Positions 4,655 to 21,443 of a stretch of 64,000 nucleotides of DNA are shown here, piece by piece. How positions within the stretch are numbered: the stretch's first letter is position 1; every line of letters begins with the position of its first letter. The position numbers and the translations under genes are program-made. The notes beneath the pieces were generated by a model that saw nothing but the letters and a program-made list of their open reading frames with translations, was not told where the DNA came from and searched no databases. The DNA comes from an uncultured bacterium (lineage in GTDB: Bacteria > Fidelibacterota > Marinisomatia > Marinisomatales > JAHJCW01): contig CAZWKR010000006.1 of the NCBI GenBank assembly GCA_964634215.1, forward strand, positions 15,607-79,606, in the 5' to 3' direction.

Positions 4655-6781
4655 ATGAAGAATTCTCATAAGACCGAGGAAGATCCTTTACAGGAGATTA
4701 GCAAATTCAACAATAAAGTAGTCGATTCAGAAAAATCTGAAACCCTACACAAGCAGACAAAAAGAGCTTTAGAAGAAAGTGAAGAAAAATTTCGCTTAAT
4801 AGGGGAAAATACTACAGACTTTATCTCAATTGTAGGTTTAGATGGAAAGTATATTTATGTCAGTCCTTCATATAAATTGCTTGGCTATGATCCTGATAAA
4901 TTAATTGGAAGCGATGGTTTTAAATTACTTCATCCTGATGACAGGAAACGATTACGTCCACTTATCAAACAGGTTGTTTCAGGATTATTTAAAAAAGGAA
5001 CCACCAGGCGTTTCGAAATCCGTTTATTAGATAAATCGGGTAAATACCGCGACACAGAAAGTATTGTTAAACTGATTAAAGACGATATAGGGAAATTTAG
5101 AATTCTTTCGGTAGTCCGTGATATTACAGAACGGAAACAAGCAGAGCGTGTTCTTAGCAATAGTGAGGAACAATTTCGCAATATGTTTGAATCTAACCAT
5201 GCAATAATGCTATTAATTGACCCTGTTTCTGGAAAAATAATGAATGCAAATCCTGCTGCATGTAAGTACTATGGTTATTCAAATAAAAAATTTATAAATG
5301 AACTTTATATTCAGAACATAAATACTCTGTCCGACAGAGATATAAAAAATGAAATGCAAATTGCCGTCAAGGAAAAAAGAAATTATTTTGTTTTTAAACA
5401 CAAATTAGCCAATGGGATAATTAGAGATGTGGAAGTATATAGCAGCAAGACAATCTATCAGGGTAAATCATATCTTTATTCAATAATCCATGATACTACC
5501 GATCGAATTCATGCACAAAATGCGCTCATCGAAAAAGAGGCAAGAATTAAAAGCATTTTTCGTTCAGCACCGGTTGGTATTGGTGTGGTAAGCAATAGGA
5601 TTTTTTTAGAGGTCAATGATTGTCTTTGTGAAATGACTGGATATTCAAAAGACGAATTAGTTAATAAAAACAGTAGGATGTTATATGTAACAAAAAAAGA
5701 GTTTGATTATGTTGGCAAGGAAAAATATGAGCAAATAGAAAAATACGGTACAGGTACTGTTGAAACGCGTTTTAAAAGAAAAGATGGAAAATTTTTGAAT
5801 ATTATTCTGAGTTCAACTCCAATCGATATTGACAATTTAAGTAAGGGCGTTACTTTCGCTGCTTTAAATATCACTGAGCGTAAGCATGCGGAAGATAAAA
5901 TTAAATTTCTCAGTGAGATTACCCAACAAGCAAGGGACTCAATTATAACAACAGATCTCAATTTTAAGATTACTTGGGTAAATAATGCGTTTAGTAAATT
6001 ATTTGGATACAAATTTGAAGAAATAATTGGCAAACAACCGGATTTATTAAATGCTGAACCATTATCTGCCAAATACCAGAAAAAAATATATAATACCGTT
6101 ACAGCTGGAAAAGGATTTAAAGGCGAAGCGCTCAATATCAAAAAAGATGGTTCTGTTTTTCAATGTGAGCTTGAAATTTTTCCAATGTTGGATAAAAATG
6201 ACAGCATTATTGCATATTCGGGGCACCTTAGAGATATTACTGAGCGAAAACTTGCAGAAGATACACTTCGTAACAGCGAAAATCAGTATCGTCAATTTTT
6301 TAATGAAGATCTTTCAGGGGCGTTTATTTCAACGCCCGAGGGGAAATTGATAGAATGTAATCAGGCCTTTCTCGATATTTTTGGATATTCAGATAAAAAG
6401 AATGCTCTAAAGGATAGTACATATAAATTATATGATGAAGAAGACCAGCGCGATAAGAAACTTGAAATTCTTAGGGAAAAGAAAAAACTAATTAATTATG
6501 AAGAAAAGTTAAAAAATGTAAAAGGTAAGACGATATATGTAGTAACCAATATGAAGGGAGAATTTGATAGTGATGGAAAATTAATTTTTCTAAAAGGTTA
6601 TTTAATTGATATAACAAAACAGAGGATTGCAGAGAAAGAACTCAAAAGGAAAAATGATGGTCTTCAAATGAGCAATGATCTTTTTGTGGGAAGAAAATTA
6701 AAGATGATTGAATTAAAAAAAGAAATAAATGAGCTTCTTGAAGCTTTCGGTAAAAAACCTAAATATAAAATTATTGGATAA
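4655..6781 (+). CDS. Multi-PAS (about 5 PAS/PAC units) cytoplasmic sensor protein ending in a short coiled coil, with no recognisable output domain
   Basis: Repeated 'DITERK(Q/H/L)AE' PAC-end linkers at regular intervals. No H-box, HATPase, GGDEF, EAL or HTH motif seen. C-terminus 'LKMIELKKEINELLEAFGKK'. Confidence 0.75.
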   Translation: MKNSHKTEEDPLQEISKFNNKVVDSEKSETLHKQTKRALEESEEKFRLIGENTTDFISIVGLDGKYIYVSPSYKLLGYDPDKLIGSDGFKLLHPDDRKRLRPLIKQVVSGLFKKGTTRRFEIRLLDKSGKYRDTESIVKLIKDDIGKFRILSVVRDITERKQAERVLSNSEEQFRNMFESNHAIMLLIDPVSGKIMNANPAACKYYGYSNKKFINELYIQNINTLSDRDIKNEMQIAVKEKRNYFVFKHKLANGIIRDVEVYSSKTIYQGKSYLYSIIHDTTDRIHAQNALIEKEARIKSIFRSAPVGIGVVSNRIFLEVNDCLCEMTGYSKDELVNKNSRMLYVTKKEFDYVGKEKYEQIEKYGTGTVETRFKRKDGKFLNIILSSTPIDIDNLSKGVTFAALNITERKHAEDKIKFLSEITQQARDSIITTDLNFKITWVNNAFSKLFGYKFEEIIGKQPDLLNAEPLSAKYQKKIYNTVTAGKGFKGEALNIKKDGSVFQCELEIFPMLDKNDSIIAYSGHLRDITERKLAEDTLRNSENQYRQFFNEDLSGAFISTPEGKLIECNQAFLDIFGYSDKKNALKDSTYKLYDEEDQRDKKLEILREKKKLINYEEKLKNVKGKTIYVVTNMKGEFDSDGKLIFLKGYLIDITKQRIAEKELKRKNDGLQMSNDLFVGRKLKMIELKKEINELLEAFGKKPKYKIIG

Positions 6782-6800
6782 TTTATAACTTACAAATGAC

Positions 6801-6891
6801 AAACCCCTCTTTTAGAGGGATTTGTCGTCAATATATCAAGCGTGGCTCCGGGCGGAATCGAACCACCGACACAAGGCTTTTCAGGCCTCTG
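6801..6891 (-). repeat. Direct repeat, left copy: terminator region plus the 3'-terminal 49 nt of tRNA-Phe (truncated tRNA, attachment-site-like)
   Basis: 6815-6891 is identical (77/77 by hand alignment) to 14232-14308. Similarity continues leftward through 'acccctct' with a 1-nt indel in the hairpin loop. Identity stops at 'ggcctctg', inside the anticodon stem. Confidence 0.9.
6805..6819. terminator. Hairpin CCCTCT-TTT-AGAGGG; probable original terminator downstream of tRNA-Phe, convergent with the PAS gene
   Basis: Perfect 6-bp stem read directly. Lies 24 nt after the PAS ORF stop and 23 nt from the truncated tRNA 3' end. Confidence 0.5.
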
Positions 6892-7250
6892 TTTCACCGT
6901 CGTGAACCATATTTTTTCTGCCGTTTTTCCACCTGAAGGGTGCGGAAATAATACATTTTTATAGTTCCTAAAACATATCCCCAAACAAACGGACCAATAT
7001 AAGAAAGCTAGAAGAAAATGTTATTTAATTTTATCTGATTATATTTTTTTGATTGTTTCTATACTTGGGGACAATCCCTAGGACAATTAATAGTTTTTCA
7101 CACTACTAAAAACCTGTTTATATTTATGACATGTTTGTCTTAATATCAATATATAAACTATATGATATAATTGATATAAATGTATTAACATTCACTTGTC
7201 ATCAAATGATAAATGATGTTGATTAAATTCCGATTCTTGGTATTTTTTTA

Positions 7251-7640
7251 ATGAAAACAGCGATTAAACGTAACGCAAATTTTATATTTGTACTTACTGC
7301 ACTATTATTCTCAGTGCAGATTGTACTTCAATCGGGTCCTATTGCCAAAAGAGTGATTATAAACGGCGAATCTATATGTACTTGTGGATGTGGACATACT
7401 ATTGCGAAATGTGCAGAAAATCATGGTAGTAAACATAGTAAATGCAGTTGCCAACATGAGAAAGATGAAATAATCCATTATATTTTCACACAAAATATCA
7501 TCGGGGATATCATCATTAATCAGGACATTCCATACTATTTTAAAAAGACTCCGGAATTATTTTCTATTGAAGAATTATTGCAATTTGATCAATTTATCGC
7601 AAATATTTATAGCCCGCCCCCCCAAATAAACCTTGTTTAA
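7251..7640 (+). CDS. Small exported or membrane-anchored protein with a dense Cys/His cluster (putative metal-binding)
   Basis: N-terminal hydrophobic segment 'FIFVLTALLFSVQIVL'. 'CTCGCGHTIAKCAENHGSKHSKCSCQH' holds 6 Cys and 4 His in 27 residues. It is the first gene of the operon. Confidence 0.5.
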   Translation: MKTAIKRNANFIFVLTALLFSVQIVLQSGPIAKRVIINGESICTCGCGHTIAKCAENHGSKHSKCSCQHEKDEIIHYIFTQNIIGDIIINQDIPYYFKKTPELFSIEELLQFDQFIANIYSPPPQINLV

Positions 7641-7740
7641 TTTAGGCGACTGCTAGCTTCAAAGCGGAAAAATCAATCTAATTAATTCAATGTCCTGAAT
7701 AATAAAGGAATGGACATTTGTTATCATAAATGAGGTTAAC

Positions 7741-9978
7741 TTGAAAATAATTAAAATAATTTTGTACTGTACGTGGTTTGCTACAGTTCAAATTTTTGCG
7801 CAGCAAACTGCGACTATTAGTGGTGCGGTATTAGATAAGCAAACAAATGAAGTCTTGAGCTATGCACAAGTAGTATTGGTTGGGACAACGATGGGCGCTA
7901 CCACCGATGAAAACGGTCAATTTCATATTGTGGTGTTGAAATCAGGGATATATGAAATCAAAACAACTATGATGGGATTTTCACCTCAGAGCATTAAGGC
8001 TAAAGTTGAAAATGGTTCGGAAGTAGTAGTTACGTTTAAACTACAACCCACTGTACTGGATGCGGATGAGATCTTTGTCACCGCAACCAAAATGGACAAA
8101 GCCGTTAAGAATATAGGTGGAGCGGTTTATATGATTCAGGAAAGTGAATTGAGACAAAGTGATAGTCGCAATATACAAGATGTTCTTACGAGAGTTCCGG
8201 GTGTCTTTACTCAGGATAAATTTCACAATGAACACAATGTTGTTACATTTCGCGGAGTTGGGTTACATACTTATGTTACCCGCGGAATTCTGGTTCTTGT
8301 AGATGGAATATCGGTCAATGAAGCGATGGGTCGTTCTGTTTTTGAAGGAATTAATCTGGAGAATGCTGAGCGAGTTGAAATTCTTAAAGGACCTGTATCC
8401 GCTTTATATGGTCCCAATGGAATTACAGGAGTTATTAATATTATTACCAAAAAAGCACCTGAGAAATTAGACGGTTCATTGAGCTACACTAATGGTGCAT
8501 ATAACTCAAAACGCTTTTCAGGTCAACTAGGTACAACATTTGGCAAGACTGGTGTTTATGCAAATGCATTAGTTTATTCTTCTGATGGATACATGGATCG
8601 CAATGCATATGACACAAAAAAAATTAACACACGTTTATCATCAGAATTTGATATGCTCGGATCATTAGATCTAACTTTTGATTATACAGAATCAACGATA
8701 GACTATGCTGGTTCATTAACTCGCGAACAATATGAGAATGACGAGACTGCCGGAACAAGTAAATATACTGGAAGTGAAAAACAGTTAATGCGTCTCGGAC
8801 TTAGAAGTGTAAAAGATTTGAACAAAAAATCACATATAGCCAGTAACATTTATTATCGCAGTCGTTTTGATCAGGGACATTACATGGACATCCGGTATGG
8901 CGAAAGTGATCTTAATCTTCTAGGTGGTGAGATCCAGCTACAGTCCAAAATTATGAAAGATAAGATTAGATATGTGGTTGGAGCCAGTCATGATCGGGAA
9001 ACAGGTGATTCGCAAACCTATAATCGTGATGAAGATGGTATAGTACAGGATTTAATTGGAGACGGCACAAGCAACTACAATATCAGTGGTGCTTATACTC
9101 AAGCTGATGTTTCAATACTTACTAATCTTACAGCGATATTAGGCATTCGTTATGATAATGTAGCCTATGACTGGCAGGATAATTTTCTGCCGGACAGTAG
9201 TAACACATCCGCGAGTACCACCATTGGTGCAGTAAGTCCAAAGTTTGGTATTGCCTATAATCCATTTGAACTAATGACAATTTTTGGTAACTGGGGACGT
9301 GGTTTCAATCCACCCGAAATGGACCAGCTGTTTAGTTCTGATTCTGAAAGCAATCCTGACTTGAAACCGGAATACTTAACTAATTATGAAATTGGAATCC
9401 GTGGTCGTTTAGGACCTCGTGTTAATTATCAAATCTCAGCCTTTAAAATGGATTTTGTTGATCAGGTTGTTAAGGATGAAGAGACAGATTACTATGAAAA
9501 TATAGGAAACACAGAACATAAAGGACTTGAAACATCAATTAATGCCATGATTATGCAGAATATGATGATTTATCTAAACTATTCCTATCTCAAAGCCTCT
9601 TTTGTTGACCATCCCCTATATGAAGGCAATGCATTGGTAAAGATACCTGAAAATCAAATAGGCGCAGGTGTAAGAATGACATTGCTTAATGATCTTACAG
9701 TAAGTCTTGATTATAAGTGGATGGATAAATTTTTCATGGATAATGAAGAAACAAATATATACGATGGTCATAGTGTTGTTAATGCTAAAATGCGATACAA
9801 TTACAAGCGTTATCATGTTGCGTTAAGCGTTGATAATTTACTGGACACCCACTATGCTTCTTCTGCAGCAGCTAGGTATGCAATTATTAACTATAGAACT
9901 CGGGAATATGGCTGGATAGAAAGTTTCTACCCAGGCTGGCCTCGTAACTTCAACCTAACAATTGGAATTGATTTCTAA
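7741..9978 (+). CDS. TonB-dependent outer-membrane receptor with N-terminal carboxypeptidase-regulatory-like domain
   Basis: TTG start after 'gagg'. Signal peptide '...VQIFA|QQ'. CarbopepD_reg-like 'ISGAVLDKQTNEVLSYAQVVL...TDENGQFHI'. Plug motifs 'RVEILKGPVSALYGPNGITGVINIITK'. C-terminal aromatic 'IGIDF'. Confidence 0.85.
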   Translation: MKIIKIILYCTWFATVQIFAQQTATISGAVLDKQTNEVLSYAQVVLVGTTMGATTDENGQFHIVVLKSGIYEIKTTMMGFSPQSIKAKVENGSEVVVTFKLQPTVLDADEIFVTATKMDKAVKNIGGAVYMIQESELRQSDSRNIQDVLTRVPGVFTQDKFHNEHNVVTFRGVGLHTYVTRGILVLVDGISVNEAMGRSVFEGINLENAERVEILKGPVSALYGPNGITGVINIITKKAPEKLDGSLSYTNGAYNSKRFSGQLGTTFGKTGVYANALVYSSDGYMDRNAYDTKKINTRLSSEFDMLGSLDLTFDYTESTIDYAGSLTREQYENDETAGTSKYTGSEKQLMRLGLRSVKDLNKKSHIASNIYYRSRFDQGHYMDIRYGESDLNLLGGEIQLQSKIMKDKIRYVVGASHDRETGDSQTYNRDEDGIVQDLIGDGTSNYNISGAYTQADVSILTNLTAILGIRYDNVAYDWQDNFLPDSSNTSASTTIGAVSPKFGIAYNPFELMTIFGNWGRGFNPPEMDQLFSSDSESNPDLKPEYLTNYEIGIRGRLGPRVNYQISAFKMDFVDQVVKDEETDYYENIGNTEHKGLETSINAMIMQNMMIYLNYSYLKASFVDHPLYEGNALVKIPENQIGAGVRMTLLNDLTVSLDYKWMDKFFMDNEETNIYDGHSVVNAKMRYNYKRYHVALSVDNLLDTHYASSAAARYAIINYRTREYGWIESFYPGWPRNFNLTIGIDF

Positions 9979-10972
9979 GGGTTATACGTTGAAAAATTTA
10001 ATATATATTTTTTTGGTATCGGTCTTGTTTGGAGGGACCGGTACTAATGCTGTTTGGTTGTCACAGATTCCACCACCAGAGCGAGCGAAACAAATTGTAT
10101 CTTCAGGCATGCATCGTTTACCCACAGTAAAAAAGAGAGGTCGTGGCCCGGTGATACTAGCACTATGGTTGCGTCAGGGAGAGTCTATTTTAGATGCAAA
10201 ATATGTAGACCGGACCAACTTTGATAGTCTTAAAACCACGCTCCTTTCACCTAATGGTGAAGCAATCGAACATAATCTCTCTAAAGTTGAAGGAGGGCTA
10301 GAATTAACGCTAAGTGGCTCGGATGAGGGTTTTTATAATGCCTTCCTCATTGGAAAAAAACTTGAAGGTGAAACACTTATAGTTTCTACCGTGCAGTCAG
10401 AATTGATAAATCACAGTTGTCGTAATGGACATAAACATGTTTCCCGTAGTTTGGGACCATTTTATGGAGGTGATAGTATTCCACTAGAAATAATTAGGAA
10501 TCGTATTCGATGGGAAGATTTTCATACAGTCATTAAATCCGGTGATGTAATTGAATATCAACTGTTGTTATATGGTCAGCCTATATCTGGCATAAGAGTG
10601 ACAATGACAACCCATCAAGGTTGGCAGAAATCAAAATTTACCAATAGTGAAGGAAAGGTTAGTTTTGAATTTATAGGAGAATATTTTGGCAGGGACAAGG
10701 AATTTCACAGTCGCGATATGTATCATTACTTATTAGTAGCAGATTATTCTGTTCCTGAATCTGGGCAATTTATGAAGAAATCTTATCAAAAGATTAGGTA
10801 CCAAAGTACGGTTTCTGAAAAGTACAGAGCAGCTACTGAAATCTATACATCCACCGTTTGGGGATTATTTATAATGTTTGTAACAATGGTGATTGTTGGC
10901 TTGAGTATTTTTATTTATCGGCGGAAAACCAGTCGTGATTATAGGGAAATAGTATTCGATGAAAAAGATTAG
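9962..10972 (+). CDS. Periplasmic protein with N-terminal signal/anchor and C-terminal TM anchor (DUF4198-like Ig/transthyretin-type fold suspected)
   Basis: Overlaps the receptor stop; an alternative TTG lies at 9989. 'GDVIEYQLLLYGQPISGIRVTMTTHQGWQKSKFTNSEGKVSFEF' resembles DUF4198/CarboxypepD_reg beta-sandwich segments. C-terminal TM 'WGLFIMFVTMVIVGLSIFIY'. Confidence 0.45.
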   Translation: MELISKGYTLKNLIYIFLVSVLFGGTGTNAVWLSQIPPPERAKQIVSSGMHRLPTVKKRGRGPVILALWLRQGESILDAKYVDRTNFDSLKTTLLSPNGEAIEHNLSKVEGGLELTLSGSDEGFYNAFLIGKKLEGETLIVSTVQSELINHSCRNGHKHVSRSLGPFYGGDSIPLEIIRNRIRWEDFHTVIKSGDVIEYQLLLYGQPISGIRVTMTTHQGWQKSKFTNSEGKVSFEFIGEYFGRDKEFHSRDMYHYLLVADYSVPESGQFMKKSYQKIRYQSTVSEKYRAATEIYTSTVWGLFIMFVTMVIVGLSIFIYRRKTSRDYREIVFDEKD

Positions 10973-11954
10973 CACAATTCTAAATAACGGAAATATTAAT
11001 CGTTTCCGTACCATTGTTCAAATACTTACATTTATTTTACTTATGTACGGTGGTTTGGCTCATATTTCAATCAGTGAGCGAATCCCCACCTTTGCTTGTC
11101 CATATAACCCTGCTAGTGGAGGAACCTGCTATTTGATCGCAATTCAACATCAGCTTCACACTACTTTTGCCAACTTAGCCAGCTTCAGTGGAATTGCCAT
11201 ACTAACGGGACTGGGATTATTTCTTATGTTTTTTCTATTTTTAAACAAAGCCTGGTGTGGCTTTATCTGTCCGCTGGGAACAATTCAAGATTGGATAACT
11301 GGTCTTCGACGGAAGTTGGGTTTTCGGTTTGCGCGGTACGAGGACAACAATTTTAAGAGATTAAAGATTATTAAGTATTTGTTATTAGCATTATTAATTA
11401 TCATTTCCTTGGGCATGAGTAATTCATTTTTTGGATTACCAAAAATCTCACATGATATGTCATCACCTTTTTGTCAAATTTGTCCAGGGCGAACAGTATT
11501 ACCAATATTTGCTGGTGATACTACCCAACTCGTTATTGACTTCAGTTCAACTACTACTTTGATAATGTCCGCACTAGGTATGATAGTTACGGGTCTCTTC
11601 CTGGTTGGTGCTTTTGTGAAAAAGAGATTTTTTTGCCTGTTTTGTCCCATGAGTGCTTTACAATACATCTTTTCAAAATTTGCATTTTTACGATTGATTA
11701 AGGATGGGGAGAAGTGCACCAGGTGTGGAAACTGTTCACGAGTTTGCGACGTTGGTATCAAAGAAATTGCTGATGACGTCGTCAGTAAAAACATTGTTAC
11801 TGATGATTGTATGATGTGTTTTAAATGTGTTGGAGCTTGCCCTGAAAAGGATTGTCTTAAAGTAAAATTTGTTACATTGCCACTTTTTACGGCTACAGAG
11901 GAAGGTTTTTTTAAACGCTATGAAGCGAATGAGAATAAAGAGATTACACTATGA
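10959..11954 (+). CDS. Integral-membrane polyferredoxin (NapH/MauN/NosR-C-terminal family, 4Fe-4S binding)
   Basis: 'WCGFICPLGTIQDW' (CX3CP) and 'FFCLFCPM' motifs between TM helices. Two ferredoxin motifs, 'CTRCGNCSRVCD' and 'CMMCFKCVGACPE'. 14-nt overlap with the upstream ORF. Confidence 0.75.
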   Translation: MKKISTILNNGNINRFRTIVQILTFILLMYGGLAHISISERIPTFACPYNPASGGTCYLIAIQHQLHTTFANLASFSGIAILTGLGLFLMFFLFLNKAWCGFICPLGTIQDWITGLRRKLGFRFARYEDNNFKRLKIIKYLLLALLIIISLGMSNSFFGLPKISHDMSSPFCQICPGRTVLPIFAGDTTQLVIDFSSTTTLIMSALGMIVTGLFLVGAFVKKRFFCLFCPMSALQYIFSKFAFLRLIKDGEKCTRCGNCSRVCDVGIKEIADDVVSKNIVTDDCMMCFKCVGACPEKDCLKVKFVTLPLFTATEEGFFKRYEANENKEITL

Positions 11955-13219
11955 ACAATGGAAATCAGAGATATGAGCGTCAGAAAATATTAGCTCGGAA
12001 ACGCTTTAAGCAAGAAGGTCAACGCTGTTTGCAGGATTTAACACAAGATGGCAGAAACCATCCTAACGGAATGAAATATTTTTATGATCGATATCGGGAT
12101 CTTCTGGAAGAATCGAACAAAACCAACGATAAGCCGGTTGTGGCTTCCATGTGCATACACGTACCGGCAGAATTAATCTATGCTTTGGGTGCCCGACCAG
12201 TACGAATCTGTGCCGGAGTTCATGTGACTGACACTATTGGGGCAGAATATTTGCCAGCCAAAACTTGTCCACTTGTAAAATCAACGCTAGGAGCTATTCA
12301 CATGGATATGCTGCCAATAAAGAGCGAACCGATTATGACAGTTAATCCCACAACCTGCGATCAAAAACGTAAGTTGGGAGAAGTGACAGCAGAACTTGGT
12401 AAAGAACTTTACACCATTGAATTGCCACCAACTAAGGATTCAGCAGAAGCTCGGGAGTATTGGTTGCGAGTAGTAAAGAAGTTCACACTAGTCTTAGAAG
12501 AAGCTACCGGACAGAAATTAACGAAGAAGAAATTGAAATCTGCTATCAGCTTAGTTGCCAAGGCTCAGGCAGAATATAGGCGGTTCCATCAATTGCGACA
12601 ACAGGGAATAGTAATTAATGGAAATGATGCTCTCCTGGTAACTAATTCCCACTTCTTTGATGATATTGAAGCCTGGACAATTGCCTTAAAAAAATTAAAT
12701 ACTGAACTTGAGAAAAGACTTTCTGAGGATAAATGGGTGGTTCCAAAACAGACACCACGCATATTGATTACTGGATCACCATCAATTTTCCCAAATCTAA
12801 AACTACCGTTACTAATTGAACAATCAGGTGCAGTAATTGTCGAGGATGAATTTTGTAGTGGTAGTCGCTTGCTCCACGATACCGTAGCTGTCGATGAGTG
12901 GTTTCTCTATGATATGATCCCAGCGATAGCAGACCGTTACTTAAAACCTAGTACCTGTCCCAACTTCACACCGAACGAAGATCGGGTTCGAAAATTATTA
13001 ACGTCCATCAAAGATTTTAAAGTCGATGGTGTGATCTATCAATCTTTTGCAGGTTGTCAGTTATATGAAATTGAGTCGCTGAGCATTGGAAAAACACTAG
13101 AACGAGAGGGTGTTCCAATGCTATATGTAGAAACTGATTATAATCCGGATGATGGTGGGCAATTATCAACCAGAGTTGAAGCCTTTATAGATGCTCTGAA
13201 TGGAAAAAATTCATACTAA
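11951..13219 (+). CDS. 2-hydroxyacyl-CoA dehydratase / BcrC-BadD-HgdB family Fe-S protein present as a single subunit (double-cubane-cluster-protein-like)
   Basis: ATGA overlap with the polyferredoxin gene. 422 aa with conserved-looking Cys positions ('MCIHVP','AKTCPLVKS','TTCDQKRK','EFCSGSR','STCPNF','FAGCQLYE'). Sits directly upstream of an activase gene. No second paralogous subunit is present. Confidence 0.7.
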   Translation: MNNGNQRYERQKILARKRFKQEGQRCLQDLTQDGRNHPNGMKYFYDRYRDLLEESNKTNDKPVVASMCIHVPAELIYALGARPVRICAGVHVTDTIGAEYLPAKTCPLVKSTLGAIHMDMLPIKSEPIMTVNPTTCDQKRKLGEVTAELGKELYTIELPPTKDSAEAREYWLRVVKKFTLVLEEATGQKLTKKKLKSAISLVAKAQAEYRRFHQLRQQGIVINGNDALLVTNSHFFDDIEAWTIALKKLNTELEKRLSEDKWVVPKQTPRILITGSPSIFPNLKLPLLIEQSGAVIVEDEFCSGSRLLHDTVAVDEWFLYDMIPAIADRYLKPSTCPNFTPNEDRVRKLLTSIKDFKVDGVIYQSFAGCQLYEIESLSIGKTLEREGVPMLYVETDYNPDDGGQLSTRVEAFIDALNGKNSY

Positions 13220-13222
13220 GGA

Positions 13223-14023
13223 ATGACAATGCATTATTTTACAGGGATCGATATTGGATCCACATCAATAAAAATCGCAATCATCGATGATAGTGGTAGG
13301 TTAGTGAATAGCATTACTACGCCCACTGGTAGCCGTTTTGCTCAGAATACCGTTGATGCTCTAAATCGGTTACTTTCAGAAGTTGGGATTTCTCCGGATG
13401 ACAATGCATATACTATTTCCACTGGTTATGGACGCAAATTATTTAAGGCTGGTGACGAAGCCGTCAATGAAATTACTGCCAATGCAGTTGGTGTTAAGGC
13501 AATGGGCTCTGAATATAGGAGCATTAGGACTATTATCAACGTAGGTGGTCAGGATTCAAAGGTGATACGGTTGAAATCAGATGGAAGTGTCGACAAGTTT
13601 GCTATGAATGATAAATGCGCCGCCGGTACAGGTCGTTTTCTGGAAATTGCAGCTCGTAATTTGGAAGTTGATATTGCTGAGTTTGCCAATCTTCATCTTA
13701 CAACGAAAGAATTATCCTGTCAGGTGAACAGCACTTGCGCTGTATTTGCAGAATCAGAACTCATTTCACTATTAGCAGCTGGCAATGATAAAGCTACAAT
13801 TGCAGGGGGAGTTCACGAATCCATTGCTCGGCGTTTGAGTCGTTTAGCTGCTCGCGTGGGTCTATCTGAAGATGTACTGTTCGATGGTGGTGCAGCCATT
13901 AATGGTGGAATGATTAAAGCACTTGAAGACGAGTTAATGGTGCCGTTGATAATTGCTGCTGATCCTCAGACTACAACTGCCATTGGTGCAGCAGTTATGG
14001 CAAAAGACCGATGGAAGAATTAG
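13223..14023 (+). CDS. BcrAD/BadFG/HgdC-type ATPase ('CoA-substrate-specific enzyme activase', archerase)
   Basis: ASKHA phosphate-1 motif 'GIDIGSTSIKIAII'. The two cluster-bridging Cys contexts 'NDKCAAGTGRFLE' and 'NSTCAVFAESE'. 266 aa. Confidence 0.85.
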   Translation: MTMHYFTGIDIGSTSIKIAIIDDSGRLVNSITTPTGSRFAQNTVDALNRLLSEVGISPDDNAYTISTGYGRKLFKAGDEAVNEITANAVGVKAMGSEYRSIRTIINVGGQDSKVIRLKSDGSVDKFAMNDKCAAGTGRFLEIAARNLEVDIAEFANLHLTTKELSCQVNSTCAVFAESELISLLAAGNDKATIAGGVHESIARRLSRLAARVGLSEDVLFDGGAAINGGMIKALEDELMVPLIIAADPQTTTAIGAAVMAKDRWKN

Positions 14024-14137: not shown

Positions 14138-14211
14138 TTTTTCCTCACCCTTCAGCCTTGAAGCATGAGGAAATAATGAAATTTCCCCATTTTTCCCCTA
14201 ACTTCTCAGAC

Positions 14212-14237
14212 AAATAAAAAACCCCTCTATTGAGGGA
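14212..14237 (-). terminator. Rho-independent terminator of tRNA-Phe
   Basis: On the minus strand: CCCTC-AATA-GAGGG followed by G+TTTTTATTTG, 23 nt past the tRNA 3' end. Confidence 0.7.
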
Positions 14238-14308
14238 TTTGTCGTCAATATATCAAGCGTGGCTCCGGGCGGAATCGAACCACCGACACAAGGCTTTTCA
14301 GGCCTCTG
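14217..14308 (-). repeat. Direct repeat, right copy (terminator + 3' 49 nt of the intact tRNA-Phe)
   Basis: See the left copy. 14232-14308 is identical to 6815-6891. Confidence 0.9.
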
Positions 14309-14332
14309 CTCTACCAACTGAGCTACAGAGCC
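14260..14332 (-). tRNA. tRNA-Phe (anticodon GAA), 73 nt, CCA not encoded
   Basis: Reverse complement is GGCTCTGTAGCTCAGTTGGTAGAGCAGAGGCCTGAAAAGCCTTGTGTCGGTGGTTCGATTCCGCCCGGAGCCA. It folds by hand into a 7-bp acceptor stem, GCTC/GAGC D stem, GAGGC/GCCTT anticodon stem with loop CTGAAAA, and GGTGG/CCGCC T stem with loop TTCGATT. Confidence 0.93.
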
Positions 14333-15131: not shown

Positions 15132-18100
15132 TTGAGCATGAGGCGGAAAACCACATTATATTTTATTGTGTTTATCGCATTGGCGATGAATCTGCGCGCG
15201 CAATCATTTGGGTATTTCTCTGACAGCAGTAGAAGTACATATTTTTCAACATCATATGTTGTGAACCCATTTAAATCATCCCCCGTTTACGGTTTGCCAG
15301 GAGATTCATTAATTAAATATCGAGGAATTTTAGAAAATACAGCTTTAAACCCTAAAATTTCAGTAAATATAGATGACAATTGGCAATTCATAACAATATC
15401 AGAAACAATTAATGGTTATACTCTTAAGATACCTTTTACTTCATCCTTTGATTGGTATTTTAATAATAAAATAAAACATGACAGTAAAAATTATTTTCAA
15501 GAACGATTAGCAGTATCAAAACAACTCGCTTCCGATAGAGCAGTACAAAGAAATAAATCATTTGAAGTTGTTGGCGTTAACCTTGGTGATCTAGGTCGCG
15601 CTTCACTTCGTATAAATGGTAATGTAACGGTTGCGGGTAAGATGATTTATCAGGATCAAGAATTGATCACATCCAGTTTTAATGAAAGCCAAAAAGCACG
15701 TTTCGATATTGATCAAAAACAACATCTAAATATTGAAGGTACCATCGGGGATAGAGTCAGTGTTTCAATGGATCAGGATTCAGAAAGAGATTTTGATTGG
15801 GAAAATAATATCCGTATAACTTATACCGGAAAGGAAGATGAGATTATTCAAAAAGTAGAGGCAGGGAATACATCATTATCTTTACCCGCGACTCAGTTTG
15901 TAACTTTCACCGGAAATAGCCAAGGTTTGTTTGGTGTGAAAGCAATTAGCAAATTTGGACCTATCGACGTAACGTCAATTGCTGCAGTTGAGCAAACAAA
16001 AAAAGCAAAACAGAATTACAAAGGCGCTGGACAATCACAAACCCAAATAATAAAGGATTATGAGTATGTAAAAAACCAATATTTCTTTATTCATGAATGG
16101 TTTCGAAATGGTATTTCTACATCTGTAAATGGAAATACAATTACATTGCCTTCTTACTACCCACTAGATGATGAAGGACGTCATTCGAGAGGTGAGTTTC
16201 AAGTTGCAGATTTTGAATTATATAAACTTGATTTATCTAATAATCCTGCTGCCGATGTCGGTACAGCATATATAGATCCTGATAATAAGAATGAAAACGC
16301 TACTTACAACAAGGAAGGTACTTTTTTACGTATGGAACGAGATATTGATTATTTCCTGAGTGTAGATTTAGGATATATTCGATTAAGAAGCCGTAGTCAA
16401 GAACAGATTTTAGCATGCAGTTATTTATTAGTGAATAGTACTACAGGAGATACTGTTTTAACAGTCGGACACGGTCTAATAGAGAGTGATTCCACACTTG
16501 TTTTGAAAATGCTAAAACCACAGTCCTCTCATCCCAATCATCCAACTTGGGATCTAATGTTTAAGAATGTATATAATTTGGGTGCAACAAATATTGATTC
16601 TACCGGATTCGCAATAAGAATTGTTAACAACTATGATACGCCGGTAAGTGATCGTGATGAATTTGGTAAAACATACATTAATCGGTTTGATTTAGACAAT
16701 AAAAATGAGAACGGTGCAAAAATACCTGATGATAAAATTGATATTGATAATATTGTATTTTTGAATTTTGGAGAAATGCATTTACCTGCTTTGTTACCTT
16801 TTGTATCTGTAAATAATATCGCAGGTGGTAATACAAATGAAGATTTAACAGACCTACTTGGCGAGGGTAAAATGTATACATCTACTGTGCATACGGACTA
16901 TACCGGCGATAGCAGGTTTATTATTGAAGCTGATTATTCAAACCTTAGCTCAACAATTAATTTGGGATTTATGATAGTTGAAGGGAGTGAAGAAGTTTTG
17001 TTAAATGGTATTACTTTAACAAAAAATCAAGATTACACTATCGATTATTTTTCAGGTACAATCAATTTAATAAAATCCGATATTGATCCAATTGCAGATA
17101 TTGATATTAAGTATGAGAAAAATGAATTGGTCAGTTTTGATAAAAAAGTAATATTAGGTAGCCGAGCTCAAATGGATATCGGTGAAAATGCGTTTATTGG
17201 TGCAACAGCATTATATTATAATCAATCTGTAATTGATGAGAAAATAGAGGTCGGGTATGAACCTATGCGGAATTTTATATGGGATATTAACGGACGTTTT
17301 GGAAAGGATTTAGATCGTCTTACATACTATCTTGATCGGTTACCGCTTATAAAAACGGATGCCATATCGTCATTTTCATTAGAAGGAGAATTTGCACAAG
17401 TTTTTCCGAATCCAAATTCAGTATCAAATTCTGCCACCGGCGATGGAAATGGATTGGCTTATATCGATGATTTTGAAGGATCAAAAAGGAGTAATAGCCC
17501 AAGTGTAAGGCATGAACGTTGGGAACCATCTTCTGCTCCAATTGACGTTACTTCAGGTTTGCAATATCGACAGAAGAACAGAGCAAAAATGTATTGGTAC
17601 AGCCCATACGCTAAATATCCAACAAAGAGTATTTGGCCAAATCAGTCTACTTCTGTTCAGGCTAACGATCAAACAGTTGACATATTGATATTGAATTACG
17701 AGACTCTATTTCATCAGACAGGAATAGAGCGTGATTCGATATGGGCAGGTATCATATCACCATTTTATTCGGGAAGTTATGATCAAACTCAAAGCAAGTT
17801 TTTTGAAATTTGGATAAAAGGAAATGATGGAAATTTAACCGTTGATCTTGGCAAAATTAGTGAAGATTGGAATAACGATGGTGTTCTTAACACTGAAGAT
17901 AAAGCTGAAGCCGGATTTGTGCAAGGAAATGGCATTTTAGATGATGGGGAAGACTTAGGTTTAGATGGAGCAAGAGACGAATACGAAGATGGTTGGGGTG
18001 GTGTCTTAGATTCAACAGGTCTTACTTTCCAACAATATCTTGCAAGCGGTGAGACTATATTAATTAATCCTGATGCAGAAGATTTAGAAGATCCAAACGG

Positions 18101-21100
18101 TGATAATTGGTTTTACGATGATCAGCAAAATATTAGTAACTATAAAAAAGTCAATGGAACACAAGGAAATAGAAATGCGGCTGGTGGTAGATATCCCGAT
18201 ACAGAAGATTTGGACGGTTCAGGATTTCTTGATAAGACAAACAATTATTTTACCAAAACATTTCCATTAGATCAGTCCAAATATTTTGTAACTGAAACCG
18301 AAGAAAGTGATGGAACTCCAACGGGTTGGCAATTATTTCGCATCCCACTTACTCACTTTGAGAAAGTCAATAATGTTGATTGGAGTGAAATTCGCTATAT
18401 CCGTTTAGTATGGTCAGGTGTTGACGAGGCTTCTGAGTTGGGAATTGCCAAAATCGAATTAGTTGGAAATGATTGGCAAGAGTTAGGCATAGCAGAGCAA
18501 CAGTCCAATACTTTTACTAAATCTGATAGTGCATTTGCGATAACGGTTATCAATACTGAAGACAATCCTGAGTACACGCCCCCCCAGGGTGTAAAAGGTG
18601 AATATAATCCAATTTATCAAACACGATCTAAAGAACAATCATTGGTTTTAAAGTTTGAGGATTTACCTGTTAATAATAAAGGTGCCGCAAAAAAAACCTT
18701 ATTTTCTTTAACCGGAGAACGCGCACAAAGCTACCTTACGTATGATAAATTAAAAATGTATGTATATGGTGATGAAAGTCAATGGATTGGCTCACAAGAT
18801 ACAGATGTAGAATTATTCTTACAATTTGGTTTGGGTGATCAATATTATGAAATCACCCAACCTGTCTATAGTGGTTGGGATGAAGAACTTAATAGAAATG
18901 CGGTAAATATTGATTTGAATTGGTTGACAAAGTTAAAGTTGCAGGATTCTACTAGTGTTGAGAAAATAAATGACGCAGATATATTCAAAGATTCATCAGA
19001 TGTTAAGCAGTACTATTTTTCTGATGAGCAAGGAGTTTTAACTGGGGAAAAAGTTATAATTAAGGGTGAACCGGCTATATCTAGAATTCAACATTTTATT
19101 GTTGGGATTAGAAATAAAGCAAATGAACCGATTACCGGTCAGGTGTGGATAGATGAGTTAAGACTAAGTGGAGTTAAAAAAGAAAAGGGTGTGGCAATGC
19201 GTGTACAGTCTAATTTACAATTGGCTGATTTTGGCAATACATCAATAATTTTTAGCCGGAAGGATGCTGACTTTCATGTATTACAACAACGCTTAGGAAC
19301 CAATAAAACTAATCAGAGTATTCGTGTAAATACTAACTTACAAATGCAAAAATTCTTACCAGAATCTTGGGGTCTATCCATCCCTGTGAATATATCTTAT
19401 TCAAATTCAAGTAATAGTCCAAAATATTATCCGGGTTCCGATGCGCGAGTAAATACCTCCGCAGTACCTGATTCAATAATTGATAAATCTGAAGTTGTTA
19501 GTATTAGTACAACATTCATGAAAAAGCGAAAATCAAATAATAAATGGATTAAATACACGATAGATGATATCACAGGTAGTTTTTCTTCAAATAAAATATT
19601 AACGTCCAATGAAATAATGAGAGAAGTCAGGAATGAATCATATTCTGGAAAACTGACGTACAATCATGCATTTGCCAGAGATAATTTTTTCAAACCATTA
19701 AAATGGCTCAAAATCATACCCTTGTTTGGAGAAAAAATTAGTGAAACCAACTTTTTCTATACACCAAGCAGTCTGAATGCAGGAATTGATTTTTCGGAAA
19801 AATTAATTCAAAAAGATTCTAGAGCAGGTGGCAGGTCACCTGATGAATACAATTTAGGATTAAACCGAACATTAAATTTGGTATATAGACTAACCGACAA
19901 TTTAGAAGCAAAATATAGCAGAGGGGCAAAAAGTGACATGGACGAATTTCGTGCTGAAGTGATAAGAGCTTTACAAAACTGGGATCCCGGGATTGTCACC
20001 AATACTAATGAAAATTTAAGCACAACATTTAATCCTGTCATTGCAGAATGGTTAAAACCAAATTTTACATATTCTGCTGCATACCGATGGGATCAGCCTC
20101 TTAGTAGTACAATTGATGGTGCAAATATCGGAACGCAGTTGCGTTTCTCATCAAATCTATCCTTAAATGTTGTCTCGATACTCGAAACAGTATATAAACC
20201 AAAAAAGGAAACAAGACAACGTAGTGAACCAGAATCAAAAAGAAGACAACGACGAATTTCTGAAGATGAAGAAATCGGTGATCTTACGGAGGGAGCTGAG
20301 TTAGGTGGGCGCAACAGAATATTGGAAGATCAAAATGAACCTTCTACCCAAAAGGATAAACAGGCAAAAGAAAAGGTTACAATAGTGGAGGATGATGAAA
20401 AACACAAAATTAATGTGTTAGCAGGTTTTCATAAGATACTGAAAAAAATCAATCCAATTAATATGACATATTCTTCTAACTTAAATCGTACAGGAGTAGG
20501 GGTGCAAGGCGAAGTTCCAACCGGATACAAATTTGGGTGGTTGCCTGATCATGGTTTACAGCATTCTGAAAGTGTTGGGACAAATACCGGACAATGGAAT
20601 TTAATTCGCAATCTATCATTAAGATCGGGATTCTCGATTTCAACAAAAGCCAATATTAACTTAAACTATGTTCAAGAATTGGGGGTTAATCGTAGTGGCG
20701 GCACGGATTTGGAATTGCATTCACTCTCACGTAATTATTTTGCTTATGGTGAAAGATTAGATAAAGGTTTGCCATTTACAAATTGGACTATGCGTGTTAC
20801 AGGGTTGGAAAAGTTACCCTTAATAAATAAATTTGCCAAATCTGTTTCTCTTGAACATGCTTTTTCCGGCAAGGAGGTTCAATCCTGGAAAATTGAAGGT
20901 GAAGATAGTATTCCAACCACAGACTTTTTTGGAATTACAAAATTTGCAAATAGTTATTCAGATTATTTGGTGCAGTCACGTGTTAATTCAAGTTATTCAC
21001 CTTTAATAGGATTATCAATGTCATTTCCGAAAGGAATTTCATTAAATGTTAGGCATAATTTGAGCAATACTGCTGAAAAAAGCCCAACAGGTTTAACTTT

Positions 21101-21443
21101 AAAAAAGGAGCAATCAATAAGCGTGAGTTCAAATTATACTCATAAAGGAGGATTTACAATACCAATTCCATTTTTTGATAATTATAAAGTTCAAAATACA
21201 ATGAATTTTACTCTAAATGCTGATTATAGTCTTAACCAAACTTTTGCTACAAAAAATAGTCCTGATTTAGCTGTAATAGATAAAAATGAAAACAAAAAGA
21301 TTGGTTTAAGAATTTCATATTCGTTTTCATCACGTGTAACAGGTGCAGTAATTTTAGAATATCGTGAAAGTGATTCAAAACATATTGGTAAGAAAATCGA
21401 TCGTGATATTGGTTTTGATCTAAACCTCGCAATTAGCGGATAA
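15132..21443 (+). CDS. sprA: T9SS outer-membrane translocon SprA/Sov
   Basis: 2103-aa secreted protein (signal '...MNLRA|QS'). Size and beta-rich composition fit SprA. Calcium-binding Asp-rich (thrombospondin-type-3-like) stretch 'DWNNDGVLNTEDK...DDGEDLGLDGARDEYEDG'. T9SS neighbours lie downstream. The ATG at 15138 is an alternative start. Confidence 0.8.
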   Translation: MSMRRKTTLYFIVFIALAMNLRAQSFGYFSDSSRSTYFSTSYVVNPFKSSPVYGLPGDSLIKYRGILENTALNPKISVNIDDNWQFITISETINGYTLKIPFTSSFDWYFNNKIKHDSKNYFQERLAVSKQLASDRAVQRNKSFEVVGVNLGDLGRASLRINGNVTVAGKMIYQDQELITSSFNESQKARFDIDQKQHLNIEGTIGDRVSVSMDQDSERDFDWENNIRITYTGKEDEIIQKVEAGNTSLSLPATQFVTFTGNSQGLFGVKAISKFGPIDVTSIAAVEQTKKAKQNYKGAGQSQTQIIKDYEYVKNQYFFIHEWFRNGISTSVNGNTITLPSYYPLDDEGRHSRGEFQVADFELYKLDLSNNPAADVGTAYIDPDNKNENATYNKEGTFLRMERDIDYFLSVDLGYIRLRSRSQEQILACSYLLVNSTTGDTVLTVGHGLIESDSTLVLKMLKPQSSHPNHPTWDLMFKNVYNLGATNIDSTGFAIRIVNNYDTPVSDRDEFGKTYINRFDLDNKNENGAKIPDDKIDIDNIVFLNFGEMHLPALLPFVSVNNIAGGNTNEDLTDLLGEGKMYTSTVHTDYTGDSRFIIEADYSNLSSTINLGFMIVEGSEEVLLNGITLTKNQDYTIDYFSGTINLIKSDIDPIADIDIKYEKNELVSFDKKVILGSRAQMDIGENAFIGATALYYNQSVIDEKIEVGYEPMRNFIWDINGRFGKDLDRLTYYLDRLPLIKTDAISSFSLEGEFAQVFPNPNSVSNSATGDGNGLAYIDDFEGSKRSNSPSVRHERWEPSSAPIDVTSGLQYRQKNRAKMYWYSPYAKYPTKSIWPNQSTSVQANDQTVDILILNYETLFHQTGIERDSIWAGIISPFYSGSYDQTQSKFFEIWIKGNDGNLTVDLGKISEDWNNDGVLNTEDKAEAGFVQGNGILDDGEDLGLDGARDEYEDGWGGVLDSTGLTFQQYLASGETILINPDAEDLEDPNGDNWFYDDQQNISNYKKVNGTQGNRNAAGGRYPDTEDLDGSGFLDKTNNYFTKTFPLDQSKYFVTETEESDGTPTGWQLFRIPLTHFEKVNNVDWSEIRYIRLVWSGVDEASELGIAKIELVGNDWQELGIAEQQSNTFTKSDSAFAITVINTEDNPEYTPPQGVKGEYNPIYQTRSKEQSLVLKFEDLPVNNKGAAKKTLFSLTGERAQSYLTYDKLKMYVYGDESQWIGSQDTDVELFLQFGLGDQYYEITQPVYSGWDEELNRNAVNIDLNWLTKLKLQDSTSVEKINDADIFKDSSDVKQYYFSDEQGVLTGEKVIIKGEPAISRIQHFIVGIRNKANEPITGQVWIDELRLSGVKKEKGVAMRVQSNLQLADFGNTSIIFSRKDADFHVLQQRLGTNKTNQSIRVNTNLQMQKFLPESWGLSIPVNISYSNSSNSPKYYPGSDARVNTSAVPDSIIDKSEVVSISTTFMKKRKSNNKWIKYTIDDITGSFSSNKILTSNEIMREVRNESYSGKLTYNHAFARDNFFKPLKWLKIIPLFGEKISETNFFYTPSSLNAGIDFSEKLIQKDSRAGGRSPDEYNLGLNRTLNLVYRLTDNLEAKYSRGAKSDMDEFRAEVIRALQNWDPGIVTNTNENLSTTFNPVIAEWLKPNFTYSAAYRWDQPLSSTIDGANIGTQLRFSSNLSLNVVSILETVYKPKKETRQRSEPESKRRQRRISEDEEIGDLTEGAELGGRNRILEDQNEPSTQKDKQAKEKVTIVEDDEKHKINVLAGFHKILKKINPINMTYSSNLNRTGVGVQGEVPTGYKFGWLPDHGLQHSESVGTNTGQWNLIRNLSLRSGFSISTKANINLNYVQELGVNRSGGTDLELHSLSRNYFAYGERLDKGLPFTNWTMRVTGLEKLPLINKFAKSVSLEHAFSGKEVQSWKIEGEDSIPTTDFFGITKFANSYSDYLVQSRVNSSYSPLIGLSMSFPKGISLNVRHNLSNTAEKSPTGLTLKKEQSISVSSNYTHKGGFTIPIPFFDNYKVQNTMNFTLNADYSLNQTFATKNSPDLAVIDKNENKKIGLRISYSFSSRVTGAVILEYRESDSKHIGKKIDRDIGFDLNLAISG

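Follow-up and report, generated by a model that had tools for sequence, protein, structure and literature searches.

A double-cubane-cluster reductase encoded with a TonB-dependent receptor and a membrane polyferredoxin: a candidate trace-metal uptake module

Double-cubane-cluster proteins (DCCPs) are enzymes for which structure and catalysis are known but the physiological role is explicitly unknown (PMC7317905). For example, the DCCP of Carboxydothermus hydrogenoformans (DCCP_Ch) catalyses acetylene reduction, with CO and cyanide as inhibitors (PMC7317905), and class-I DCCPs have been proposed to act on small molecules. One genomics-based proposal places a DCCP next to an importer: at the locus named SAO (for selenocysteine-assisted organometallic), an ABC-type system would import a compound that the neighbouring DCCP and its activase would then reduce (Haft, bioRxiv 10.1101/2022.07.06.499078). 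In a separate field, DUF4198 proteins have been described as periplasmic metal-buffering binding proteins, of which Zcp carries a metal site made of three His residues (PMC12663993). Here we analyse 64,000 nucleotides (nt) of DNA from an uncultured bacterium (GTDB lineage Fidelibacterota; Marinisomatia; assembly GCA_964634215.1, contig CAZWKR010000006.1, positions 15,607 to 79,606 of the forward strand; hereafter the window), in which these elements meet in a single six-gene cassette: a candidate trace-metal uptake module built around a DCCP. The six open reading frames (ORFs), with protein lengths in amino acids (aa), are as follows.

7251-7640, + strand: mini-protein gene (ORF, 129 aa)
7741-9978, + strand: gene for the TonB-dependent receptor, TBDR (ORF, 745 aa; Pfam)
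9962-10972, + strand: gene for a C-terminally anchored periplasmic protein, PERI (ORF, 336 aa; alignments, AlphaFold2 and Foldseek)
10959-11954, + strand: gene for a NapH-like polyferredoxin with four transmembrane (TM) segments, PFD (ORF, 331 aa; Pfam/NCBIfam)
11951-13219, + strand: DCCP gene, for the double-cubane-cluster-type reductase subunit (ORF, 422 aa; HGD-D, NF040772, PDB)
13223-14023, + strand: gene for an archerase-type ATPase/activase, ACT (ORF, 266 aa; BcrAD_BadFG, TIGR00241, PDB)

A first-pass annotation of this DNA had described six co-directional, closely packed genes, and all six ORFs are indeed found, on the + strand and tightly packed between 7251 and 14023. The mini-protein and receptor genes are separated by 100 nt (7640 to 7741), the PERI and PFD genes overlap by 14 nt (10959-10972), the PFD and DCCP genes share an ATGA (11951-11954), and 3 nt lie between the DCCP and ACT genes (13219 to 13223). 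The last three of these junctions stand as that annotation gave them; its 17-nt overlap between the receptor and PERI genes holds only if PERI starts upstream, at 9962. The alternative start, a TTG at 9989, lies 10 nt past the receptor stop and yields a protein whose first residues, MKNLIYIF..., line up with the signal peptides that homologues have, and for this reason it is probably the true one; the junction is tight whichever start is used. A strong 14-pair hairpin (TTGGTATCGGTC...GACCGGTACTAA) at 10013-10047, within the signal-peptide codons of the PERI gene and shortly past the receptor stop, could affect translational coupling. The six genes may be transcribed as one unit. The family identities of the first-pass annotation also agree with Pfam and NCBIfam profile searches (TBDR, Fer4_5, HGD-D and BcrAD_BadFG); the mini-protein and PERI match no Pfam or NCBIfam family above threshold.

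The enzymatic core of the cassette is the pair formed by the last two genes. The 422-aa protein matches HGD-D (PF06050) in Pfam with an expectation value (E) of 5.5e-92 and scores 349.9 bits, at a curated cut-off of 350, against NF040772, the NCBIfam model for a 'double-cubane-cluster-containing anaerobic reductase'; the next-best NCBIfam model is BzdN, at 103 bits, and the BzdN, HadC and BcrC models score 250-290 bits below the DCCP model. Its best solved relative is DCCP_Ch (PDB 7yyl/6eno), to which residues 55-415 align with E 2e-70, and at 422 aa it has the length of this class-I protein. The seven-Cys motif of DCCPs consists of six cluster ligands and one further Cys close to the channel. 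Seven Cys residues (68/87/106/136/302/336/369) fall in gap-free alignment with those of DCCP_Ch and are all invariant across 24 module homologues from other phyla, and a loose form of the seven-Cys motif is found in 75 of 77 homologues from the loci described below. The DCCPs of these modules form a subfamily of their own, with pairwise identities of at least 0.39 (median 0.52) and with DCCP_Ch outside, at 0.30-0.40. ACT matches BcrAD_BadFG (PF01869, 1e-52) and TIGR00241 (7e-64), as well as the solved archerases 4eht and 1hux and the DCCP reductase 7yyl_E. By these alignments the 422-aa and 266-aa proteins are a pair of the DCCP/DCCP reductase (DCCP-R) type, class-I-like and with a lone reductase subunit that has no partner; an [8Fe-9S] cluster and ATP-driven reduction are predicted for them. 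A two-subunit 2-hydroxyacyl-CoA dehydratase or benzoyl-CoA reductase is ruled out by the DCCP model score, the PDB match and the invariant seven Cys. Both genes had been read correctly at first pass, one as a lone HgdB/BcrC-family Fe-S subunit, which proves to be a seven-Cys DCCP with DCCP_Ch as its closest structure and no second HGD-D gene adjacent, and the other as an activase with both cluster-bridging Cys contexts, which alignment to 4eht places at C132 and C172.

How general is this arrangement? An alignment scan anchored on PFD, with one genome per species, found relatives in 242 genomes, of which we examined the 80 best loci; these come from Neomarinimicrobiota (with PFD matches reaching 87% identity), Bacteroidota, Calditrichota, Thermodesulfobacteriota, Nitrospirota, Gammaproteobacteria and Spirochaetia, and the order TBDR-PERI-PFD-DCCP-ACT is seen in all 80 wherever the contig allows. 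In the opposite direction, a metagenome scan that started from DCCP added 80 loci (43-57% identity), in which PERI and PFD once more stand immediately upstream and ACT stands downstream. Across 164 loci, and counting only those with enough DNA, PFD adjoins DCCP in 138 of 138, PERI in 119 of 123 and ACT in 132 of 135; short contig flanks make the frequencies of wider context lower bounds. The receptor gene was found by tblastn in 70 of 102 loci, itself a lower bound as the receptors of other phyla are only 21-27% identical, and by clustering in 108 loci. No second HGD-D gene lies beside the module in any locus, save the copies within duplicated modules. Additionally, the gene after ACT encodes a DsbD_2/CcdA-like membrane protein in 58 loci, commonly outside the Fibrobacterota-Chlorobiota-Bacteroidota (FCB) group, and genes for TonB, ExbB and ExbD are present in 49, 39 and 36 loci, respectively.

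Gene fusions tie the components together more closely still. In locus L169 (8001-10730) a 909-aa protein fuses a Fer4_5 polyferredoxin, NosL and PERI, and in L170 (1255-3609) a 784-aa protein fuses Fer4_5 and PERI, each in the position of PERI, directly upstream of PFD, DCCP and ACT; in L172, on a plasmid of Sulfurovum mangrovi, the PERI slot upstream of the same three genes holds a 722-aa protein annotated as '4Fe-4S binding protein' (6840-9008). These fusions of PERI to polyferredoxins suggest that the two act together physically. With near-invariant synteny seen from both anchors and with the fusions, we regard it as very probable that the cassette is one functional module. The first-pass annotation had asked whether the receptor half and the reductase half are linked at all in other genomes, and the answer is decisive: the linkage holds in 164 loci from either the PFD or the DCCP anchor, and the receptor, the NapH-like protein, HGD-D and BcrAD_BadFG recur together, in the same order, in many phyla.

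Several features of the wider neighbourhoods were recorded along the way. Three loci (L079, L083 and L144) each contain two full or partial copies of the module, which suggests paralogous systems, possibly with differing cargo specificities. A recurrent side module, seen in L004, L012, L028 and L040, consists of a NosL-like gene and genes for a 122-aa protein, an FtsX-type permease, an ABC ATPase and a 336-aa protein; the last is a Cys-rich membrane protein with a CPFC motif and no Pfam or NCBIfam family, and a thioredoxin gene is sometimes near. Resistance-nodulation-division pumps beside the module were considered as CusA-type exporters, but they score better as multidrug-type pumps and are uninformative.

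PFD is the component that would connect the cytoplasmic reductase pair to the membrane. It contains Fer4_5 and Fer4_10 domains (Pfam), four TM segments predicted by hydropathy, a CX3CP motif (100/104), two CX2CX2CX3C motifs and two CX2CP motifs. The first-pass annotation had called it a NapH-type polyferredoxin; the CX3CP and the two CX2CX2CX3C motifs that it named are present, and the two CX2CP motifs, which it did not list, must be added, but PFD is only NapH-like, the scores against the NapH/MauN models being 70.9 bits (TIGR02163, cut-off 213) and 70.3 bits (PRK09477, cut-off 234). In other words, PFD shares with the NapH/MauN quinol dehydrogenase subunits only the Fer4_5 and dicluster architecture. 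With the topology read off the sequence by the positive-inside rule, both [4Fe-4S] motifs, the CX3CP motif and one CX2CP (226/229) are predicted to be cytoplasmic, and four more invariant Cys (47, 57 and 172/175, the last two in PFCQICP) fall in two predicted periplasmic loops. A canonical NosH from a nos operon has neither these periplasmic-loop Cys nor the long third loop, making the four Cys diagnostic of the PFD subfamily. The Fer4_5 family includes the cupric reductase CcoG, and another member, FtrD, serves iron uptake; the family thus has a metal-handling precedent.

PERI supplies the most direct indication of what the module may handle. It has a signal peptide or N-terminal hydrophobic segment and a C-terminal TM segment (300-318), beyond which alignments show a conserved cytoplasmic tail, YRxRRxxPYREVxFDEK. 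A motif H151-S-C153-R-N-G-H157 (H-x-C-x3-H) and H188 are near-invariant in 30 module proteins, and the motif residues are retained in about 65-80% of 61 wider family representatives, so that H151, C153, H157 and H188 are candidate metal ligands. Homologues had to be collected by an exhaustive hidden Markov model search, since word-indexed searches returned only 9 and 19 proteins, and the family is rare: 203 clusters (at 50% identity) among 1.84 billion representatives, at E <= 1e-3. In a few homologues the N-terminal segment is rich in Met (GMGGM-type) or in His. By sequence, PERI finds only noise-level immunoglobulin-like matches in the PDB, and a first AlphaFold2 model built from 17 sequences (pLDDT 50) was unusable; it is superseded by a model from the 61-sequence alignment, with pLDDT 91.6 and pTM 0.84. 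The nine best Foldseek matches of that model in the PDB are all DUF4198 proteins (E 7e-10 to 3.5e-7, target TM-score 0.58-0.68). The top ones are structures of Neisseria gonorrhoeae Zcp with Cu, Zn or Co (E 7e-10, TM-score 0.65-0.68), and a further one is a Ni-bound DUF4198 protein of Ideonella (9gcb). Against the Pfam DUF4198 model (PF10670) the window protein itself scores 16.8 bits, below the gathering score of 34; weak DUF4198 matches recur in 26 of 30 homologues, with a best E of 1.7e-7. As modelled, then, PERI is a DUF4198 two-domain beta fold, and this fold, the His/Cys motif and the Met- and His-rich segments together point to metal handling.

The receptor is built of CarbopepD_reg_2, Plug (PF07715, 1e-21) and barrel (PF00593, 5e-46) domains and is of the 22-strand barrel type. 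Its best solved relatives are YncD (7e-35) and PqqU (3e-33), and OprC is absent among its solved-structure matches at E <= 1e-5. A NosA/OprC copper receptor was considered and is ruled out by this closeness to YncD/PqqU and by the lack of conserved Cys, His or Met. The mini-protein encoded upstream has a TM segment (11-29), six Cys and five His inside residues 43-76, and a C-terminus ending in ...IYSPPPQINLV. The Cys/His cluster for which the first-pass annotation singled it out is present in the window and is lineage-specific, sequence relatives having been seen, among the loci examined, only in the window's own contig. What recurs is more modest: of 73 loci whose upstream DNA sufficed, 34 have a receptor-upstream ORF of 62-208 aa (mostly 92-143), and each of the 34 encodes an N-terminal TM segment and, among its last 14 residues, a PP motif, typically ...[H/P/R]PP[K/R/Q/E]..

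What, then, does the module import, and why should an importer need a DCCP? The encoding of TonB machinery in the cluster points to uptake of a scarce nutrient, and the reading that we favour, with about even confidence, is that the cassette is a TonB-dependent uptake system for a scarce thiophilic trace metal, copper foremost, in anoxic sulfidic habitats. That the cargo is a metal of some kind seems to us probable; on whether that metal is copper we are evenly divided. Copper is favoured because of enzyme contexts and NosL. In 13 loci the module lies between nosD and nosG/H/F/Y or beside nosZ, NosL-like genes are near it in 7 loci (with NosL upstream in L167), and in L015, from Melioribacteraceae, it sits between a ccoI-like P-type ATPase/ccoNO/ccoP group, that is, a cbb3 oxidase context, and a NosZ-like gene; the NosL domain of the fusion in L169 points the same way, as does the membership of PFD in the family of the cupric reductase CcoG.

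On the metal reading, the receptor would carry the cargo over the outer membrane, powered in other lineages by the cluster-encoded ExbB/ExbD/TonB, and PERI, tethered to the inner membrane, would capture it in the periplasm through its four candidate ligands. PERI would then work directly with PFD, a NapH/CcoG-like protein with Cys pairs on both membrane faces and two cytoplasmic [4Fe-4S] clusters, and PFD would in turn be coupled, in the cytoplasm, to the class-I DCCP and to ACT as its ATP-hydrolysing electron injector, such that DCCP and ACT would be a source or a sink of very low-potential electrons by which the cargo would be released, reduced or passed on. One possibility is that electrons travel from ferredoxin to ACT, DCCP and PFD and so to the periplasmic Cys site; alternatively, reduction of the cargo or of its ligand would take place at DCCP, in the cytoplasm. 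A route from quinol through PFD to ACT, as the first-pass annotation suggested, would probably be thermodynamically uphill. Where it is encoded, the DsbD_2/CcdA-like protein could keep periplasmic thiols reduced. A more specific proposal, which we offer tentatively and which may well be wrong, would give DCCP its first physiological role: a reductase working below about -500 mV and docked on the Cys-lined PFD would power the reductive release or transfer of a TonB-imported chalcophile metal from sulfide-bound or tightly chelated forms, feeding cuproenzymes. Under this proposal electrons could be exported to the periplasmic four-Cys site, or an imported ligand (sulfide/polysulfide or an isonitrile-type chelator) could be reduced in the cytoplasm.

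A number of observations weigh against copper uptake as we have drawn it, and they deserve to be set out together. The reduction of Cu(II) to Cu(I) needs no ATP-boosted electrons, leaving the role of DCCP in copper uptake unexplained, and many hosts are sulfate reducers or sulfur disproportionators with little known copper demand. There are no nos homologues in the 64-kb window, and nos or NosL neighbours occur in only about 10% of loci. The receptor's relatives YncD and PqqU import a small organic cofactor, unlike the copper receptor OprC/NosA, and 90 module receptors share no conserved Cys, His or Met column. As for PERI, a minority of homologues are without the H-x-C-x3-H motif, a Met-rich segment is present in no more than 6 of 144 representatives, and nothing in the alignments evidently corresponds to the three His residues of the Zcp site. 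The window module and other FCB-type modules are without the DsbD_2 protein and so have no obvious inner-membrane permease. Finally, metal binding, the protein complex and the chemistry of the cassette are all inferred from sequence, a predicted structure and gene context.

The alternative that survives best keeps the architecture and changes the cargo to some other metal or a metal-sulfur species (Ni, Co, Zn, Fe-S/FeS(aq) or Mo/W sulfide, for instance), with the cuproenzyme contexts as lineage-specific recruitments. DUF4198 proteins bind Zn, Co and Ni as well as Cu (PMC12663993), and His-rich N-termini are found in some PERI homologues. Most loci have no nos or NosL neighbours, many hosts are, as noted, sulfate reducers or sulfur disproportionators, and the duplication of the module in three loci would fit several cargo specificities. 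The DsbD_2 family, moreover, overlaps with the UreH-like putative Ni permeases of InterPro. Yet the sole recurrent enzyme contexts that we found are the cuproenzyme loci, nos and cbb3/CcoI, and among the fusion partners NosL alone, a Cu(I) chaperone domain, is informative. Riboswitches for B12, Mo cofactor or NiCo were absent from the window at the gathering threshold, from the region upstream of the receptor at a permissive threshold and from seven other loci. On balance we consider another metal unlikely as the cargo.

Could the cargo instead be no metal at all? PERI would then be merely a binding protein, and a non-metal small molecule or organic cofactor, or a metalloid (Se(0), selenite), would be imported and reduced by DCCP in the cytoplasm; nitrogenase-type substrates, i.e. 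alkyne, isonitrile, azide or hydrazine-like compounds, are examples. The DCCP itself speaks for this explanation, being class-I-like, of the length of DCCP_Ch and with the full seven-Cys motif, in a class proposed to act on small molecules; acetylene reduction by DCCP_Ch and its inhibition by CO and cyanide are in keeping with it (PMC7317905), as are the receptor's closeness to YncD and to the pyrroloquinoline quinone transporter PqqU and the strong genome-level association of DCCP with SelD reported alongside the SAO import-then-reduction proposal (Haft, bioRxiv 10.1101/2022.07.06.499078). It is nevertheless quite unlikely in our view, given the metal-binding fold and conserved His/Cys motif of PERI, the fusion with NosL and the contexts of nos and cbb3 genes, which all indicate a metal, and a window module that encodes no recognisable inner-membrane permease for an organic solute.

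In a third explanation the main task is outward electron delivery and not uptake: DCCP would pass ATP-boosted, very low-potential electrons through PFD to the periplasm in order to activate or repair metal centres, e.g. by reducing the inactive CuZ* state of N2O reductase in the manner proposed for NosR, and the receptor and PERI would supply the metal. Here one may point to modules inside nos operons beside the electron-transfer genes nosG/nosH, to PFD as a NosH/NosR-type Fer4_5 protein with an extra four-Cys site on predicted periplasmic loops, and to the conserved cytoplasmic tail of PERI and the PERI-polyferredoxin fusions in some genomes. The in-vitro activation of CuZ* needs viologen-level potentials. 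In most carriers, however, the module has no nos genes nearby, and for many of them N2O reduction is improbable. Additionally, in all known DCCP and archerase systems the double-cubane or acceptor cluster is the catalytic end point and not a relay (PMC7317905, PMC9351452), and we regard outward delivery as very doubtful. Last, that the genes are chance neighbours, or a conventional dehydratase or benzoyl-CoA reductase with a distant partner subunit, is hardly credible: the Pfam name HGD-D and an NF040772 score 0.1 bit under the cut-off are what it has in its favour, and the comparative data (near-invariant synteny in 164 loci of many phyla from both anchors, the invariant seven-Cys motif, BzdN, HadC and BcrC scores 250-290 bits weaker than that of the DCCP model, and no second HGD-D gene outside duplicated modules) effectively refute it.

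The cassette is horizontally mobile. In the window it looks like a tRNA-associated island, marked as such by a directly repeated tRNA-Phe 3' half that brackets exactly the six genes, a segment of about 7.4 kb.

6786-6898, - strand: left, att-like direct-repeat copy, a displaced tRNA-Phe 3' half with its downstream hairpin (aligned with 14203-14315)
14203-14315, - strand: right direct-repeat copy, overlapping the intact tRNA-Phe(GAA) at 14259-14332 (ARAGORN, Rfam)

The repeat is about 113 nt long with an exact core of 77 nt (6815-6891 = 14232-14308); the corresponding repeat family, D1, measures 98 nt, and a sub-threshold tRNA match lies at the left copy (6851-6909, minus strand). A Logan assembly recovers the same segment as a separate 7400-bp contig. 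Between the repeats there are only the six genes and no integrase or recombinase. The GC content of the cassette (0.377 versus 0.350, standard deviation (SD) 0.014, i.e. about 1.6 SD) is a weak shift, and we draw no conclusion on foreign origin from it. The module occupies another chromosomal site in a relative whose PFD is 89% identical, and no repeats were found flanking the module in the close relative L002. Sulfurovum mangrovi ST1-3 has the module on a 395-kb plasmid. In Thiohalobacter sp. COW1 (L168; AP024239.1, 104322-125281) the module and a DsbD-like gene sit between F-type conjugation genes (TraC/V/K/E/L, TrbI) and transposase/integrase genes, flanks that would make it cargo of an integrative conjugative element; this locus also has an extra 575-aa Plug-domain gene between PERI and PFD.

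A few other features of the window may be recorded here. Abutting the left island boundary, 4655-6781 (+) encodes a 708-aa protein with repeated PAS-like segments, a coiled-coil-like tail and no kinase or other output domain apparent by eye. Downstream of the island, 15132-21443 (+) holds a 2103-aa ORF that we take to resemble SprA, the type IX secretion translocon, which would fit an FCB-group host. Further on, an Rfam SAM_alpha (SAM-II) riboswitch match (34948-35022, +; 41.9 bits, gathering 36) lies upstream of a 1233-aa ORF (35014-38715) that, judged by eye, we take to be the cobalamin-dependent methionine synthase MetH; the genome is apparently one of Neomarinimicrobiota, beyond the nominal alphaproteobacterial range of this riboswitch family.

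What is gained by the module is a context for enzymes that have lacked one. It gives one DCCP subfamily fixed partners, a place in the cell (at the inner membrane, under a TonB importer) and a cargo hypothesis that can be tested; DCCP function, open since the discovery of these proteins, becomes testable in cultured carriers, i.e. Sulfurovum mangrovi ST1-3, Thiohalobacter sp. COW1 and Desulfurivibrio dismutans AMeS2. Should the copper reading be true, ATP-boosted electrons would power uptake besides the proton-motive force delivered through TonB, with a bearing on the copper supply of N2O-reducing bacteria where sulfide renders copper insoluble, and hence on N2O emissions. We found no literature tying DCCPs, dehydratases or activases to TonB receptors or nos clusters, in a search that most subscription papers lay outside. 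The first-pass annotation had called the system undescribed, and this stands insofar as we found no report of a TonB-coupled DCCP; import followed by DCCP reduction is not new as an idea, having already been proposed for SAO. The tRNA-Phe repeats, the DUF4198 fold of PERI and the nos, NosL and cbb3 contexts were absent from that annotation.

It remains to place the module among its nearest described relatives. In its receptor half it resembles the clusters of a TonB-dependent receptor, a DUF4198 protein and a PepSY-type reductase (Meheust et al., bioRxiv 10.1101/2021.01.07.425746), which likewise combine a TonB importer, a DUF4198-fold protein and a membrane redox protein; the redox partner in those clusters is a PepSY/flavinylated system, whereas here it is an Fe-S polyferredoxin with an ATP-driven DCCP. 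PERI matches Zcp structurally (PMC12663993) and differs from Zcp and other DUF4198 proteins in its C-terminal TM segment and conserved cytoplasmic tail, its H-x-C-x3-H motif and its sub-threshold Pfam score. With the NosA/OprC and NosL/NosDFY route of copper supply the module has in common a TonB receptor encoded with nos genes and NosL domains beside or fused to PERI, but its receptor stands apart from OprC and is without a conserved Cys/His/Met site, and the module is widespread beyond nos loci. PFD, for its part, is like NapH, NosH, NosR, CcoG and FtrD of the Fer4_5 family in its four TM segments, a CX3CP-type motif on the cytoplasmic face and two C-terminal [4Fe-4S] motifs. Unlike NapH/MauN, with two CX3CP motifs, it has CX2CP as its second motif; unlike a canonical NosH, it has four extra invariant Cys and a longer predicted periplasmic loop; and its partner is DCCP, where NapH and NosH have NapG or NosG.

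The SAO locus is the nearest likeness in concept, since in both an imported compound would be reduced by an adjacent DCCP/activase pair, and both are bioinformatic proposals (Haft). SAO, however, uses an ABC importer, selenoproteins and a MerB-like lyase, occurs mostly in Clostridia and has a DCCP nearby in only 40% of loci; it lacks the TonB receptor, the DUF4198 protein and the membrane polyferredoxin, all of which the module has. In biochemical terms the closest relative is the DCCP/DCCP-R pair of C. hydrogenoformans (6ENO, 7YYL; Jeoung & Dobbek; PMC7317905, PMC9351452), likewise an HGD-D-fold, seven-Cys protein with an ASKHA 'archerase' ATPase that carries a bridging [4Fe-4S] cluster. That pair is soluble and cytoplasmic, with no known physiological substrate or partner, whereas upstream of the pair described here there is invariably a membrane polyferredoxin together with a periplasmic DUF4198-fold protein, and usually a TonB receptor as well. 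What is new, in short, is a membrane-docked, uptake-coupled DCCP system that is apparently undescribed.

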